A stretch of DNA of 25,186 nt, from UHGV virus genome UHGV-1407433, one strand, 5' to 3'. Shown here in pieces: positions 19,950-25,186 of this stretch. The position numbers and the translations under genes are program-made. Each line of letters begins with the position of its first letter. Within the stretch, counting starts at the first letter, position 1. The notes under the pieces were generated by a model that searched no databases, was not told the DNA's origin, and worked only from the letters and a program-made list of their open reading frames with translations. Source of the stretch: a virus.

Positions 19950-20417
19950 TCATCGCAACAGCGCTGACCATATCGTGCCACCTGGCCGAAGACTCTTCTT
20001 CAGTTCCTCGGACACAACATCTGAGATCGCTTTTACCATTTCAGGGGATAGCTTCACGCCGGTCTTAATTTCGGGACAGATGCCAACATTGATGGCATAG
20101 CCTTTTCGTGGGTCGTTCTCTATCCGGCCAAACTGAATATTTACAGAGCCACCAATATAACCACCAGCAGGAACACCAAAGCGCGTATTCACCAGGTGCT
20201 TAATGGCGAACTCCTGCCCTTCAGCGGTCAGGAAGGTGTAATAATTTTCCTTTTGATACTCCGTCGCGGTATGGCGTGTTTCAGCGAATCCCAGCTCTAG
20301 AAGCTCAGCAGCACCAGATTTGGCTGGCAGATCACCAGACTGAAGCGCGCCACGGAAAAACAGCGCATACAGAACATCCGTCGCCGCGCCGGACAACGTG
20401 ATAATTTTATGACCCAT
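19950..20417 (-). CDS. hypothetical protein, the last gene before the right cos end
   Basis: 155 aa. ATG 20417 follows AAGGAA. I recognise no family. A short hairpin (GGACGT-TTAG-ACGTCC) follows the stop. Confidence 0.7.
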   Translation of the reverse strand: MGHKIITLSGAATDVLYALFFRGALQSGDLPAKSGAAELLELGFAETRHTATEYQKENYYTFLTAEGQEFAIKHLVNTRFGVPAGGYIGGSVNIQFGRIENDPRKGYAINVGICPEIKTGVKLSPEMVKAISDVVSEELKKSLRPGGTIWSALLR

Positions 20418-20436
20418 GATTTATTTCCTTTTAGGC

Positions 20437-20490
20437 GTGAGCCTGTCGCACGGCAAAGCCGCCGAAAGTTAACGGTTTGCCCAGGCTCAC
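20437..20490 (-). promoter_or_regulatory. structured leader (nested inverted repeats) upstream of the 155 aa gene
   Basis: GTGAGCCTG (20437..20445) pairs with CAGGCTCAC (20482..20490). Inside, GGCAAA pairs with TTTGCC. The structure ends about 19 nt before the ATG, with the SD just downstream of it. Confidence 0.4.
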
Positions 20491-20529
20491 AGCTGAAAGA
20501 CTTTCTACGATGTGCGCGTGCGATGCGCA

Positions 20530-20553
20530 TAAAAAAGCCGCGTGATGGCGGCT
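20530..20553 (-). terminator. intrinsic terminator (minus strand)
   Basis: On the minus strand, AGCCGC-CATCAC-GCGGCT is followed by TTTTTTAT. Confidence 0.7.
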
Positions 20554-20682: not shown

Positions 20683-20943
20683 ATGTCAGAAGGTTTTGGT
20701 TTAAAAGAAAAGGTTGAGCAGTTAGAAAAAGAATTAGCCGTACAAAAAATAGCAAATCAGCTTGCTTTTGGAGCACTAATTAAAGCAGTTAATGAGCTGT
20801 ACCCGAACAAAGATTTATATGATGGGTTGACAAAATTTGTCCAGGAAAAACTTGATCCTGAACGTGTTAAAAACATCCCTAATCTTCACGAGGCCTTTCT
20901 AGAAGCTGCGAAAATACTGAGGACTGACGCATCTCCTGAATAA
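20683..20943 (+). CDS. hypothetical helical protein (86 aa), plus-strand accessory gene in an AT-rich island
   Basis: ATG 20683 follows AAGGA by 7 nt. It is the only convincing plus-strand gene in the island. An AAAGGCAGT / ACTGCCTTT inverted repeat (20954..20962 and 20997..21005) plus a T run lies downstream. I recognise no family. Confidence 0.6.
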   Translation: MSEGFGLKEKVEQLEKELAVQKIANQLAFGALIKAVNELYPNKDLYDGLTKFVQEKLDPERVKNIPNLHEAFLEAAKILRTDASPE

Positions 20944-21037
20944 TTTTATCAACAAAGGCAGTTGTGTCCTCTTGCTTTTCATTCACAATGCATGTGACTG
21001 CCTTTTCTAAAGCTGTAATTCGTTCTTCAAGTGTCAT
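20879..21037 (-). CDS. hypothetical small protein (52 aa), convergent with and overlapping the plus-strand gene
   Basis: ATG 21037 (MTLEERITALEKAVTCIVNEKQ...) follows AGGAG by 5 nt. Its 3' end overlaps the 3' end of 20683..20943 by 65 nt. The coding status of the overlapped tail is uncertain. Confidence 0.45.
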   Translation of the reverse strand: MTLEERITALEKAVTCIVNEKQEDTTAFVDKIIQEMRQSSVFSQLLERPRED

Positions 21038-21064
21038 ACCCACTCCTGTCATTGGCTTCAAAAT

Positions 21065-21139
21065 GATAAACCCCGCATTTGCAAGTCCTATTTATACCCC
21101 GCAGGGGATAAAAACCATATTATCCGCTTGCGGGGATAA
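21065..21139. repeat. palindrome cluster A: two TTATCCC..GGGATAA-type hairpins plus one half-site
   Basis: P1 at 21091..21113 is TTTATACCCC-GCA-GGGGATAAAA. P2 at 21120..21139 is TTATCCGCTTGCGGGGATAA. A half-site GATAAACCCCGC lies at 21065..21076. The cluster is related to cluster B at 22948..22997. Confidence 0.8.
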
Positions 21140-21177
21140 CCATTATCAAGCCCACCAGTAGATGGGCTTTGTAATGG

Positions 21178-21435
21178 CTACTTCGCTTTTGCTTCCGCTC
21201 GCTTACGCCGGCGCTCTTCTTTCCTCTCGGCTTTTGCCATGTCCATGAATGCCTGCATGATCGAGTTCCGCATCATGTAGCTAACAAAGTGATGATTGAC
21301 ACAGCCGTTGAGGCGCAGCTGCTCGCCAAACTCATCCACCGAGGCCAATGCTTCCATCATGCCCTTCTCGCCTTTCATGAACTCTGAGAAGTCGCGCCCC
21401 GCTCTGGAGGCGCATTCTATTATTCGGGTGCTCAT
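21178..21435 (-). CDS. hypothetical protein (85 aa) with basic C-terminal tail
   Basis: ATG 21435 lies 2 nt after the upstream gene's TGA (21440..21438). The protein is MSTRIIECASRAGRDFSEF...KAERKEERRRKRAEAKAK. A hairpin AAGCCCA/TGGGCTT (21148..21169) follows the stop. Confidence 0.65.
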   Translation of the reverse strand: MSTRIIECASRAGRDFSEFMKGEKGMMEALASVDEFGEQLRLNGCVNHHFVSYMMRNSIMQAFMDMAKAERKEERRRKRAEAKAK

Positions 21436-21437
21436 GA

Positions 21438-22166
21438 TCAGGCCGCCGCATAGAGCAATTTCATCTGCCCTTTCACCGGGAATGCCGACATGCAACGCGC
21501 TTCGAAATCACGATAATCAGAGCACCCATTGGCAATGCTGGTAACGGCAATGATCTGTCGCTCAACCAATGTCAGCGCGTCAGGTTTAAGGTGCTGATGG
21601 ATTTTGTCTCCCGCAGCCAGCCGTCTTTTAACCTCTGCATATACTTCTGGTGGTAATACCTGGCCATATACCCACTTGGCACTGATCATCCCAAATAGTG
21701 CGGGGCGACGACCTGGTCGATGACGGGGCAGCCCTGACATTTTGAACATCGCAGAATAAAACGGATCGCTAAACCTCTTTTCCCATGGCTGAGATTTATC
21801 CAGAAGGAAAATAGCCTTTATTCTTTCATCGTCGATATGATGAACGGAACCCTGAATGATTGCGTCAATTTGCTCATCACACCAGATCTCAAAATCTACA
21901 GAAAGCCATCGAGCAAATCTGACCGCCAGCTTTGGGTGAAGCCATGTTCCGCCGCCACGGTCTTTGCGAGCGCGGCTGGTTTTTACATATGTGATATTCC
22001 CATATCTACTCTTTAACGCCTCGATGTAACGGACAGTCTCAGGAAGCCTAAGCCACTGAGCCGGCTCCTTGTTGAACTTGTCAGCTGCCGCAGTCGCGTC
22101 AAACCAGCCATCGTCAGAAAAACGCATGGGATGGCCTTCGAAATCAATCGGGATGATATTGGACAT
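21438..22166 (-). CDS. KilA-N domain / P63C domain protein (antirepressor-like DNA-binding protein)
   Basis: The likely start is MSNIIPIDFEG at 22166. The N-terminal ...WFDATAAADKFNKEPAQWLRLPETVRYIEAL...GGGTWLHPKLAVRFARWLSVDFEIWCDEQI fits the KilA-N pattern. The C-terminal half (FSDPFYSAMFKMSGLPRHRPGRRPALFGMISAKWVYGQVLPPEVYAEVKRR) resembles the P63C family as I recall it. Confidence 0.8.
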   Translation of the reverse strand: MSNIIPIDFEGHPMRFSDDGWFDATAAADKFNKEPAQWLRLPETVRYIEALKSRYGNITYVKTSRARKDRGGGTWLHPKLAVRFARWLSVDFEIWCDEQIDAIIQGSVHHIDDERIKAIFLLDKSQPWEKRFSDPFYSAMFKMSGLPRHRPGRRPALFGMISAKWVYGQVLPPEVYAEVKRRLAAGDKIHQHLKPDALTLVERQIIAVTSIANGCSDYRDFEARCMSAFPVKGQMKLLYAAA

Positions 22167-22315
22167 CGTATTTACCTTTTTGGTGATATGAGCCAGTTCT
22201 CGCAGACATGGACAGCCCAAGAGCGGCACGATGTAAGCCACCGTCCTGTCTCTGTCTCATATCCCGAAAAGCTCTTGGTTGATATGCGCACGAGAATGCG
22301 CGGTTTACTGCGGAC

Positions 22316-22342
22316 ATAAAAAAGCCCCGCATAAGCGAGGCT
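22316..22342 (-). terminator. intrinsic terminator after the two-gene module
   Basis: On the minus strand, AGCCTCGC-TTAT-GCGGGGCT forms an 8 bp stem with one G-U pair, followed by TTTTTTAT. Confidence 0.75.
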
Positions 22343-22364
22343 AAATATCGAACAACTTCTTTTG

Positions 22365-24332: not shown

Positions 24333-25186
24333 TTATTCCCCTGCCAGCTGCCTTACCTCACTTACCGTCTGGTTGAAACGTTCCTCTTCCAGTTCTACGC
24401 CGATAGCCTGGCGGCCCAGTTCAATGGCTGCTTTAACAGTTGATCCCGAGCCCATAAAGAAATCAGCTACCACATCGCCGGGCCTGCTGCTGGCGTTGAT
24501 GATTTGCCGCAACATATCAGCGGGCTTTTCGCACGGGTGTTTGCCTGGATAGAACTGGACGGGTTTATGTGTCCAGACGTCTGTATAGGGCACGGCTACT
24601 GTCACAGAGAAATGCCGCCGAAGAGATTTGTACTCTTCCAGCAGATCAAGGTATTTCCGGTTCAACGAATGCCATGTGGCCACCAGCTGGTGATGCGGTG
24701 CTTTGAGTTCAGAGGCGCGGTGCTTCTCAATGGCGATCTGAGTGAACAATTCCTGCAGCTTTTCGTAATCCTGCTCGTTTGGTAGTTGCCACTGACTGGT
24801 ACCGAACCAGTGAGACGCCATATTTTTCTTTCCGGTAGCGTCAGCTATTTGCCTGGACGTGACCCCCAGTTCGGCTCGTGCATCACGAAAGTAGGTGATT
24901 AACGGAGCCATGACGTGCTGTTTGACCTCGTTGCTTTTCTCAGCAAATCCGTCGCTTTTCGGCTTATATGGCCCCTGATAATGCTCAGCGAAAAGGATGC
25001 GTTCCGTCGCGGGGAAGTAAGAGCGCAGGCTTTCTTTATTACAACCGTTCCAACGCCCTGATGGCTTCGCCCAGATAATGTGGTTCATGACGTTGAAGCG
25101 TTCACGCATCATGATCTCAATATCAGATGCCAGGCGATGCCCACAGAACAGGTAAAGGCTTCCGGCAGGTTTCAACACCCGCCAGA
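24333..25186 (-). CDS. DNA methyltransferase (N6-adenine/N4-cytosine family, beta-type motif order), 5' end outside the window
   Basis: The frame is open to the right edge (WRVLKPAGSLYLF...). The C-terminal PGDVVADFFMGSGSTVKAAIELGRQAIGVELEE is the AdoMet-binding FxGxG motif I. The DPPY-type motif IV would lie upstream of the window. The TTG start in the ORF track is not the real start. Confidence 0.85.
   Translation of the reverse strand, partial: WRVLKPAGSLYLFCGHRLASDIEIMMRERFNVMNHIIWAKPSGRWNGCNKESLRSYFPATERILFAEHYQGPYKPKSDGFAEKSNEVKQHVMAPLITYFRDARAELGVTSRQIADATGKKNMASHWFGTSQWQLPNEQDYEKLQELFTQIAIEKHRASELKAPHHQLVATWHSLNRKYLDLLEEYKSLRRHFSVTVAVPYTDVWTHKPVQFYPGKHPCEKPADMLRQIINASSRPGDVVADFFMGSGSTVKAAIELGRQAIGVELEEERFNQTVSEVRQLAGE

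Follow-up and report, generated by a model that had tools for sequence, protein, structure and literature searches.

A predicted structured leader RNA precedes a mobile KilA-N/P63C gene pair of lambda-like temperate phages

Introduction

Phage HK97 carries gene 73 (Gp73) together with an adjacent small ORF, HK97p61, after Rz and before the packaging genes. Related arrangements are found in HK620 (hkbK/hkbL) and in the Stx2 phages 2851, 1717, Stx2a_WGPS6/8 and Ss-VASD, in which a gene named 'kilA' is followed by a downstream ORF. Other phage genes are known to be silenced at the RNA level. The free-standing homing-endonuclease genes of T4-like phages (I-TevI, mobE) have ribosome-binding sites that are sequestered by hairpins. 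The IsrK-orf45-anrP locus of Salmonella Gifsy-1, which lies in a lambdoid prophage region near the Q-like gene antQ, combines a terminator with a structured leader that is made on read-through, is translationally silent and precedes an antirepressor-like gene (PMC4825925).

Here we describe a gene pair that occupies the same position as the HK97 pair. It is located in the UHGV virus genome UHGV-1407433, of which a stretch of 25,186 nt was analysed (referred to as the window). The flanks differ from those of HK97: two small genes lie between Rz and the pair, and a lambda Nu1/A-type terminase region follows.

Results

The Gene Pair and Its Products

The first gene (22166..21438, minus strand) is of the HK97 gp73 type, starts with ATG and encodes a protein of 242 aa that ends at a TGA codon (21440..21438). 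An earlier note on this DNA had proposed a KilA-N N-terminus and a P63C-like C-terminus for the product, and the Pfam profile check that we ran confirmed both domains. KilA-N (PF04383) matched aa 8-105 with 80.2 bits (cut-off 23.8, E 1.2e-22), and P63C (PF10546) matched aa 117-192 with 43.9 bits (cut-off 26.1, E 3.7e-11). These were the sole Pfam matches at E <= 0.1; there was no ANT/KilAC, AntA, P22_AR_N, Bro-N or Rha domain. The protein is also a full-length match to phrog_1136, and the two-domain architecture was retained in the best 120 of 1133 homologues, which came from gamma- and beta-proteobacteria. The protein has an APSES/KilA-N alpha/beta DNA-binding-type fold, followed by the helical P63C domain.

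The second gene (21435..21178, minus strand) encodes 85 aa, and its ATG follows the upstream TGA after 2 nt, the spacing given in the note. The note had also placed the pair correctly between lysis and packaging genes of the late operon: on the strand of the pair, it is preceded by holin, lysozyme and an Rz-like gene and followed by terS and terL. RefSeq annotates both coding sequences likewise in the identical prophage of E. coli O68:H12 strain 97.3.

Neither protein gave a meaningful match in a sequence search of solved structures or any match in NCBIfam. The sole PADLOC match was to the candidate system PDC-S22 and was weak (E 9e-5, 30 residues over the KilA-N core). A toxin-antitoxin pair was considered and rejected, since Pfam, NCBIfam and PADLOC revealed no toxin or antitoxin domain and the order and sizes of the genes are unsuitable. 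In the literature, 'KilA-N' and 'P63C' were found together in no paper, and the papers naming 'HK97' and 'gp73' do not concern HK97 gp73, as far as their titles or abstracts indicate. A study of Chi hotspots in lambdoid phages that names mEp234 makes no mention of the gene (PMC12315714). The gp73-type pair is a common and already known, functionally uncharacterised accessory module of lambda-like phages and is not new as a pair.

A Terminator Precedes the Pair

The intrinsic terminator that the note had reported upstream of the pair was recovered by the terminator scan at 22317..22342 (minus strand). It consists of the stem-loop AGCCTCGCTTATGCGGGGCT at 22342..22323, followed by a T-run. No sigma-70-like site was found on the minus strand between this terminator and the ATG (22166..22322), and no match to the LexA box (CTGT-N8-ACAG, at most one mismatch) was present within 22166..22364. 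Both scans agree with the statement in the note that no convincing promoter or LexA box lies upstream.

A Conserved Leader Fold Pairs the Shine-Dalgarno Sequence

The note had left the control of expression open. While the missing promoter and LexA box still hold, the region between the terminator and the start codon, just beyond the segment that the note covered, contains a covarying leader that pairs the Shine-Dalgarno sequence. This structured 5' leader RNA of about 140 nt (22303..22164, minus strand) is conserved and was matched by the covariance model R1 with 70.2 bits (E 4e-14). On the minus strand, it begins with the P0 hairpin (22301..22286), which follows the pattern GCGCA-N7-TGCGC. 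Segment a (22278..22271) comes next and directly abuts the anti-Shine-Dalgarno strand of a long hairpin, whose 5' strand starts from 22270. This hairpin has an internal loop and an apical region (22241..22223), with which segment a pairs through segment a' (22224..22217). The 3' strand of the hairpin (22213..22175) includes the Shine-Dalgarno sequence AAGG (22178..22175), and the ATG lies at 22166.

Single-sequence folding returned the long Shine-Dalgarno-proximal hairpin for 31 out of 31 diverse leaders, nearly all with the same architecture. RNAalifold reported compensatory changes at 18 of 29 pairs. Among 33 distinct sequences, the nested helices were paired in 95.8% of the cells, compared to 35-48% in slid controls. 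Changes on both sides were seen at 23 of 26 pairs, and none of 500 shuffles attained the observed values; the alignment behind these counts had been adjusted to the model, towards which it hence leans. The AAAGG sequence (alignment columns 174-179) pairs with a CCUUU strand, and helices 2-3 were 82-91% paired and showed double-sided changes. The pseudoknot pairing a:a' (6-8 bp) was kept in 57 of 59 distinct leaders in 23 sequence versions, while cross-pair controls reached 17%. This comparison of own pairs with cross pairs was alignment-free, since plain MAFFT put a and a' out of register. Some unpaired nucleotides are invariant as well, namely GAG opposite GUGxGAC in the internal loop and GGGC beside a'.

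For the leader in the window, the single-sequence minimum free energy structure (-49.2 kcal/mol) is a slightly different fold, in which most of the Shine-Dalgarno sequence is unpaired. The family fold lies 2.4 kcal/mol above it, with the pseudoknot not yet counted.

At gathering score, no Rfam 15 family matched anywhere in the window; none matched the leader at E <= 5, and three other variants of the leader had no match at E <= 0.5. By comparison of sequences, the leader is a conserved RNA fold with a base-paired Shine-Dalgarno sequence and without an Rfam family. The sequestration predicted from this structure probably sets the amount of protein that is made.

The Leader Is a Reusable Module

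Leaders of the R1 family also precede Rha, ANT, P22_AR_N, HNH-AP2 and T5orf172-type genes. Conservation of the element extends across genera, from Escherichia to Gilliamella, Xenorhabdus and Providencia, with unrelated genes behind it, and its end invariably coincides with a Shine-Dalgarno sequence and a start codon. The only link of the locus to antirepressors is an indirect one, by way of the same RNA leader in front of genes with P22_AR_N, ANT or Rha domains. Among 83 distinct leaders, 64 had a strict terminator that ended 4-23 nt upstream (48 nt in four of them), and several more had an imperfect one. The sequences of these terminators are not conserved.

A second copy of the leader is present in the window itself (20530..20415, minus strand; R1 67.1 bits, E 2e-13), and the scan called a terminator before it at 20553..20536 (minus strand). 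This copy precedes a gene of 155 aa (20417..19950) that matches phrog_16910 and no Pfam family. According to the minimum free energy fold, its apical loop is short and without a', and the hairpin is retained. The second copy lies outside the KilA-N cassette and marks the leader as a module that can be reused.

Conservation upstream of the gene could also be a feature of the DNA, either a recombination 'linker' at module boundaries or a set of operator palindromes. Clark et al. in 2001 and Juhala et al. in 2000 reportedly described short conserved boundary sequences at lambdoid module junctions; P0 resembles an operator palindrome, and the junctions of the cassette coincide with hairpins. We consider this explanation highly improbable. 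The helices survive many double-sided substitutions as the primary sequence diverges. Only one of the strands tolerates G-U pairs, and this together with the scores fixes the strand of the RNA: the reverse orientation reached at most 32 bits and the forward orientation up to 135 bits, a difference of about 100 bits. A constant end at the start codon, across genera and before unrelated genes, also argues against a role at the DNA level.

The conserved box, P0 and the A/T-rich linker were also inspected for a sigma-70 promoter, but the '-10-like' hexamers vary and are without the final T, and this candidate was set aside as weak. The conserved final T of the A/T-rich hexamer after P0 is missing in most members of the family. 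In favour of read-through, the nearest upstream ORF was co-directional in 47 of the 61 loci that could be scored, and most of the 14 exceptions resemble shadow ORFs. Two Xenorhabdus loci have a divergent gene upstream, and therefore a local promoter must exist there. The region of the conserved box and P0 (22313..22286) may contain a weak or non-sigma-70 promoter.

We also considered that the leader is a responsive switch, in which a:a' and the lower stem with the Shine-Dalgarno sequence are alternative states that are set by a factor acting in trans. Candidates for such a factor are cleavage by RNase III, an IsrK-like small RNA that ends at the terminator, autoregulation by the KilA-N or the basic-tailed protein, and a small ligand. 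The invariant unpaired nucleotides in the internal loop and the GGGC beside a' would fit a switch, as would the direct contact of segment a with the anti-Shine-Dalgarno strand. Even at loci with a divergent upstream gene, leader and terminator remain together, and IsrK provides a precedent. However, the two arms are nearly equal in length (about 17 bp for c:c' plus a:a', about 18 bp for b:b' plus L:L'), and all helices could form at once as a compact pseudoknot, so that no switching would be needed. The second copy in the window keeps the hairpin without a', and the unconserved terminator sequences argue against a common trans-acting RNA. A switch is thus conceivable but unlikely.

The note had hinted at an antirepressor or cross-talk regulator, a KilA-N/P63C protein that, perhaps together with the 85-aa protein, binds and inactivates the repressors of its own or of co-resident lambdoid prophages. 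Genes with bona fide P22_AR_N, ANT/KilAC or Rha domains stand behind the same leader, and such genes are common at this lambdoid position, rha of P22 and phi80 being examples. According to transcriptome work, regulation of the antirepressor genes in Salmonella prophages may be post-transcriptional (PMC7067206). None of our tests supported the hint: domains of the ANT, AntA, P22_AR_N and Rha types are missing from the 242-aa protein, a LexA (SOS) box is absent, and Rfam showed no match of the C4, sar or IsrK type. Moreover, with a terminator before it and a place in the late operon, the cassette would yield its product after the decision between lysis and lysogeny, when an antirepressor against the phage's own repressor would be pointless. 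The search of Gifsy-2, which encodes the LexA-repressed antirepressor gftA (PMC7067206), with the R1 model found nothing, and therefore the leader is not linked to the Gifsy antirepressors under LexA control. Experiments on this architecture were not found in the literature, judged for HK97 gp73 by title or abstract. We regard an antirepressor as quite improbable.

The 85-aa Partner Is Shared with Another KilA-N Protein

The 85-aa protein is a member of a genuine, conserved family (phrog_875, E 1e-53; 137 homologues). It forms a bundle of three helices and carries a basic C-terminal tail that is rich in K and R (KAERKEERRRKRAEAKAK). The gene has no strong Shine-Dalgarno sequence of its own.

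The note had treated the small gene as a specific partner of the KilA-N/P63C gene. This did not hold, because the small gene is more often coupled to a KilA-N-ORF11CD3 protein: in most of the 86 loci that carry the partner, the upstream gene encodes this protein of 165 aa, and stop and start codons overlap. The pairs of HK620 and the Stx2 phages are of this kind. Their partner is 97% identical to the one in the window, and it is likewise coupled to a KilA-N protein, after the lysis genes and behind a leader of the same family. The upstream protein, in contrast, has an unrelated KilA-N sequence, ORF11CD3 and no P63C. The homology junction between the KilA-N-ORF11CD3 and P63C contexts is located some 15 nt into the partner gene. 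Conversely, the KilA-N-P63C gene of other genera has either unrelated small genes or no small gene after it. As far as these loci tell, the partner is not specific for P63C, and the coupling has been retained though the upstream gene was swapped. The coupling suggests that the 85-aa and KilA-N proteins may interact. Distant relatives of the 85-aa protein are fused to T5orf172, which places it in the same domain-shuffling network and narrows the hypotheses on its role.

Tight coupling to downstream small genes that differ between genera resembles effector-plus-modulator pairs, and the PADLOC match over the KilA-N core (E 9e-5) also points to defence. The pair might thus be a defence or exclusion factor expressed from the prophage, for example by BstA-like abortive infection built on KilA-N, with the small protein as modulator or immunity factor. 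This seems very unlikely to us. The PADLOC match spans only 30 residues, and the partner is frameshifted in the HK97 reference. The bstA genes adjoin the repressor gene and presumably share its promoter, whereas the cassette sits between lysis and packaging genes. Insulation by a terminator, the lack of a detectable promoter and a paired Shine-Dalgarno sequence do not fit constitutive expression in the lysogen.

Boundaries and Spread of the Cassette

The terminator, the leader and both genes together (21141..22342) are 98.7% identical to HK97 at the DNA level. This cassette of about 1.2 kb is 96-99% identical in HK97, HK022, mEp234, mEp235, mEp506, mEpX1, mEpX2 and HK446. Homology with HK97 and related phages begins at 22342, and hence the upstream terminator falls within the 5' boundary. 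The 3' edge is marked by a boundary hairpin (21148..21169, minus strand), AAGCCCA-TCTACTGG-TGGGCTT, which directly follows the stop codon of the partner, lacks a T-run and was not among the terminators of the scan. The segment 21141..21176 is common to the HK97-type cassette matches and to the flank matches of the mEp213/mEp043 type, and in the KilA-N-ORF11CD3 context, the partner is followed by the same hairpin.

Like a moron, the cassette is a discrete block of 1.2 kb, present or absent between flanks that vary from phage to phage. Morons, defined as autonomous extra transcription units in a late operon (Juhala et al. 2000), also have their own promoter upstream and a terminator downstream. 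The promoter was not found here; the downstream end has the boundary hairpin without a T-run, and the clear terminator is the one upstream of the cassette. Out of 5426 complete E. coli genomes, 795 matched a 2-kb query consisting of cassette and flanks, and the count for the cassette alone is lower. A Klebsiella contig carries the cassette with 79% identity amid unannotated genes adjoining murein-transglycosylase-like genes. A role in packaging, considered because the pair adjoins terS, was set aside on account of this different neighbourhood of unrelated genes. We concluded that the cassette is a mobile, dispensable and mosaic accessory module of temperate enterobacterial phages.

Discussion

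On balance, we favour as the probable explanation that the locus is a mobile and tightly insulated DNA-binding accessory module with late read-through transcription and gated translation. It would be built, in this order, of the intrinsic terminator, the leader RNA, the KilA-N/P63C gene, the coupled 85-aa gene and the boundary hairpin. Since there is no own promoter and a terminator lies upstream, transcription would depend mainly on read-through by Q-modified polymerase that started at the late promoter, and would thus fall in late lytic growth. Translation of the KilA-N protein would be held low, or gated, by the leader. Only ribosomes that finish the KilA-N gene would make the partner, so that both proteins would be made together and would probably act together. 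The product may be a non-essential DNA-binding factor of the Bro/KilA/Ant/Rha class. Overproduction of such proteins is harmful, and its dose would therefore have to stay small; toxicity of the 242-aa protein is assumed here by analogy with P1 KilA, P22 Ant and Rha. Its targets would be DNA transactions of the phage, a co-resident prophage or the host rather than virion assembly.

The gene pair itself is ordinary, and the leader RNA is the most informative feature of the locus. It allows expression control to be stated and tested in model phages that are easily manipulated. Domain-shuffled, regulator-like phage genes are hard to study, as they would be silent unless they are read through and unmasked, and the leader provides a concrete handle. 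One reporter assay would serve all genes that are preceded by the leader, whether of the KilA-N, Rha, Ant, HNH-AP2 or T5orf172 type.

A bolder and rather doubtful proposal is that the leader represents a new class of pseudoknotted riboregulator, common to the Bro/KilA/Ant/Rha/HNH accessory genes of enterobacterial temperate phages. If this were true, the leader and its attached terminator would put unrelated and often toxic genes under one common signal, for which RNase III, a phage or host protein, a small RNA ended by the terminator, or a ligand are candidates. Such a riboregulator would be the missing expression control of a class of genes that has defied functional analysis since 2002.

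The likeness of the locus to IsrK-orf45-anrP is one of working principle, since the Rfam scans of both leaders in the window gave no family match. IsrK has features of its own: its own promoter, an upstream small ORF and activation in trans by a short RNA. Compared by description, BstA likewise consists of two domains, with a KilA-N-like DNA-binding domain at the N-terminus, and is encoded by prophages of Gram-negative bacteria. It differs in that it adjoins the repressor, with which it presumably shares a promoter, and in having a probably different C-terminal domain, the DNA immunity element aba and no coupled small gene. The int-alpA RNA motif (RF02996), a candidate structured RNA, was matched near threshold (32.5-33.4 bits, gathering score 35.8) in Acinetobacter and Paenalcaligenes, immediately before KilA-N-P63C genes, and therefore distant orthologues probably also carry a structured leader. 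This motif has a different fold and sequence and matches neither leader of the window. With the T4-like homing endonucleases, the locus shares the insulation of inserted selfish or accessory genes by terminators and by hairpins at the ribosome-binding site, and the leader family of the window also precedes HNH-AP2 genes. The T4 hairpin contains a late promoter that frees the site; none is visible here, and the fold is larger and pseudoknotted.

The KilA-N/P63C gene pair and its mobile block

The window is a lambdoid prophage, and the region tested was identical to a prophage in E. coli O68:H12 strain 97.3. All late genes are on the minus strand. A DNA methyltransferase gene comes first, then holin, lysozyme and an Rz-like gene. 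Two small genes and a terminator separate these from the KilA-N/P63C gene (22166..21438), which is followed by the 85 aa gene (21435..21178), a stretch with small ORFs, a 155 aa gene and finally terS and terL. The pair lies between lysis and packaging genes, as claimed in the earlier note. The 242 aa protein scored above the Pfam cut-offs for the two proposed domains, KilA-N at the N-terminus (80.2 bits, aa 8–105) and P63C at the C-terminus (43.9 bits, aa 117–192), and the 85 aa ORF begins 2 nt past the TGA, as described. The upstream intrinsic terminator was also called by the terminator scan (22342..22323 plus T-run). Neither a sigma-70-like site nor a LexA-like box was found between this terminator and the KilA-N ATG, in agreement with the reported absence of a promoter or LexA box. 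Since domains, coupling, terminator and promoter/LexA results hold, the earlier observation was right in all checkable details. The KilA-N-P63C architecture is common in gamma- and beta-proteobacteria (1133 homologues); our literature search found no paper on it.

The sequence 21141..22342, comprising terminator, leader, both genes and a boundary hairpin, is 96–99% identical to a block in HK97, HK022, mEp234, mEp235, mEp506, mEpX1, mEpX2 and HK446. In HK97 the block is annotated as Gp73 plus a GeneMark ORF. At the two loci inspected, HK97 and mEp234, it is located after Rz and before the packaging region, with different flanks. A 79% identical copy is present among unannotated genes of a Klebsiella phage contig, adjoining murein-transglycosylase-like genes. 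A 2 kb query of block plus flanks found matches in 795 of 5426 complete E. coli genomes. The block is known, mobile and dispensable; the pair is a real finding, ordinary as a gene pair and already present in model phages.

Some further features of the region were observed. The DNA methyltransferase gene (24333-25186) is part of the late transcription unit, placed between the Q region and holin, and extends past the window end in the parent genome. Two ORFs on opposite strands, 20683-20943 (+) and 20879-21061 (-), overlap by 65 nt and both have strong PHROG matches (phrog_21164, E 6e-46, and phrog_28630, E 1e-40); RefSeq annotates only the plus-strand ORF. Immediately 3' of the cassette, the transcribed strand carries a cluster of GATAA/TTATC repeats (21061-21150) in which two small G+C hairpins, CCCCGCAGGGG and CCGCTTGCGG, are interspersed. 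The cluster may serve in protein binding or in processing. The HK620-type context (L082) has a comparable GATAA-rich stretch 3' of its partner gene.

A structured leader RNA precedes the KilA-N/P63C gene

The approximately 155 nt between terminator and ATG were conserved when diverged copies were aligned, with apparent compensatory changes. We gathered KilA-N gene leaders at about 60 loci, and all 31 diverse leaders folded singly into a long, Shine-Dalgarno-proximal hairpin. Nearly all share one architecture. A small hairpin, P0 (GCGCA-N7-UGCGC), is joined by an A/U-rich linker to the long hairpin, which has a lower (L), a middle (b) and an upper (c) stem. Between b and c is a conserved asymmetric internal loop (GAG opposite GUGxGAC), and the hairpin ends in a large apical loop. 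The Shine-Dalgarno sequence lies in the 3' strand of L, where its pairing partner is CCUUU or CUUUU.

With 15 sequences, RNAalifold supported 18 of 29 pairs by double-sided changes. The covariance model built for the leader, R1, gave 37 matches in genome loci (33 distinct sequences), in which 95.8% of the cells were paired compared to 35–48% with slid partners, and 23 of 26 pairs showed double-sided changes; because the alignment is model-fitted, these counts lean towards structure, though the margin is large. None of 500 shuffles of the 33 sequences reached any observed pairing measure. G-U pairs and far lower scores of the reverse strand identify the sense strand as the RNA. For the window leader, the single-sequence MFE structure is 2.4 kcal/mol more stable than the family fold, the pseudoknot described below not being counted. 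No family of Rfam 15 matched the leader.

The pseudoknot would be formed by two complementary segments, segment a, 6–8 nt directly 5' of the anti-Shine-Dalgarno strand (CCAAGAGC, 22278..22271 in the window), and segment a', the final nucleotides of the apical loop right before an invariant GGGC (GCUCUUGG, 22224..22217). At least 6 contiguous pairs between a and a' were found in 57 of 59 distinct leaders, in 23 sequence versions, compared to 17% when both segments were taken from different leaders. In a smaller leader set the pairing occurred in 29 of 31 versus 9.5% in controls. The duplex alone amounts to about -15 kcal/mol for the window copy. With these arm lengths (about 17 bp for c plus a:a', about 18 bp for b plus L), all helices could form together, side by side; a:a' and L could instead be alternative states.

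The leader is not restricted to this gene. R1 detected a second copy in the window (20530..20415 (-), 67.1 bits) directly behind a terminator. This copy (region 20415-20553) has a short apical loop without segment a' and heads the 155 aa gene (19950-20417, phrog_16910), which has no Pfam domain. The exact core pattern matched at least 120 IMG/VR contigs, and the genes behind the leader encode two KilA-N types, Phage_pRha, ANT/KilAC, P22_AR_N-ORF11CD3, HNH_3-AP2 and partner-like-T5orf172 proteins. A strict terminator ending 4–23 nt upstream (four at 48 nt) was present in 64 of 83 distinct leaders, with imperfect ones in several others. Of 61 scorable cases, 47 had a co-directional nearest upstream ORF, and most of the others resemble shadow ORFs. 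At two Xenorhabdus loci (L013 1553-1858, L014 1157-1482) the upstream gene is truly divergent and a terminator-like hairpin, about 120 nt from the start of that gene, is retained before the leader. This suggests an arrangement of promoter, short RNA, terminator and leader as in IsrK.

A different leader, close to int-alpA (RF02996), precedes KilA-N-P63C genes of Acinetobacter and Paenalcaligenes (L022 7901-7984, L030 7909-7986; 32.5–33.4 bits, just under the gathering threshold of 35.8). Similar GGCUAGG...CGAAAG leaders were spotted by eye in further Acinetobacter, Burkholderiales and Neisseriales loci.

The 85 aa partner

The partner belongs to a conserved (phrog_875, E 1e-53) and very small family; a set of 1.84 billion proteins contains 22 cluster representatives of it. 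It is predicted to form a three-helix bundle (pLDDT 90.6) with the basic tail on the last helix, a fold whose structural matches are generic. The sequence is highly conserved, with invariant E7, C8, GRDFS motif, C45, N47 and H49.

At about 70 of 86 partner-carrying loci the partner comes after a different protein of 165 aa (KilA-N + ORF11CD3), whose stop codon overlaps the partner's start codon. This is the case for hkbK/hkbL of HK620 and at the 'kilA' loci of Stx2 phages, among others. In this context homology to the window starts some 15 nt into the partner gene. KilA-N-P63C genes of other genera have unrelated small ORFs tightly coupled behind them, or terS or tail genes as their immediate neighbours. 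In proteins of the T5orf172/MUG113 type, distant relatives of the partner make up the N-terminal domain. Coupling to a KilA-N protein is thus conserved. The partner is not specific for P63C and shares a domain-shuffling network with KilA-N, Bro, Ant and Rha. It may act in a direct complex with the KilA-N protein.

Individual loci showed further variants. P0252, P0254 and L180 226-714 are proteins of 160–180 aa with a partner-related N-terminus and a T5orf172/MUG113 (GIY-YIG-like) C-terminus, one of them encoded behind the same leader family. In Scandinavium (L029 7308-9022) a single leader is followed by an HNH_3-AP2 endonuclease-like gene and, directly after it, by a KilA-N-P63C gene of 45% identity and an almost identical copy of the 85 aa partner. 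In the HK97 reference (L001 1072-1390) a frameshift divides the 85 aa gene, so that the first 54 aa are identical and the C-terminal remainder is read in a different frame. Either the original record contains a sequencing error or this is a natural knockout; if it is not an error, it suggests that the partner is dispensable.

Proposed expression of the cassette

The added value of this analysis is an uncatalogued, strongly covarying leader RNA, which answers in outline the question of expression control raised in the earlier note and makes leader-based control directly testable. Alongside the observed domains, coupling geometry, mobility, terminator and RNA fold with paired Shine-Dalgarno sequence, we infer that the cassette is transcribed mainly through Q-antiterminated late read-through. 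The leader would keep translation of the KilA-N protein low, or gate it, and the partner would be made via coupled reinitiation. The product would be a non-essential DNA-binding factor whose dose needs to be limited. That the KilA-N/P63C protein acts as an antirepressor found no direct support and appears unlikely. A role of the cassette in BstA-like defence fits poorly with its position and insulation, and we regard it as slightly less likely still.

Homing-endonuclease genes, which are insulated in T4-like phages, represent a second analogue. The closest working analogue of the terminator-leader arrangement is IsrK-orf45-anrP of Gifsy-1, where terminator read-through produces a leader that is translationally silent and precedes an antirepressor-like gene (PMC4825925).
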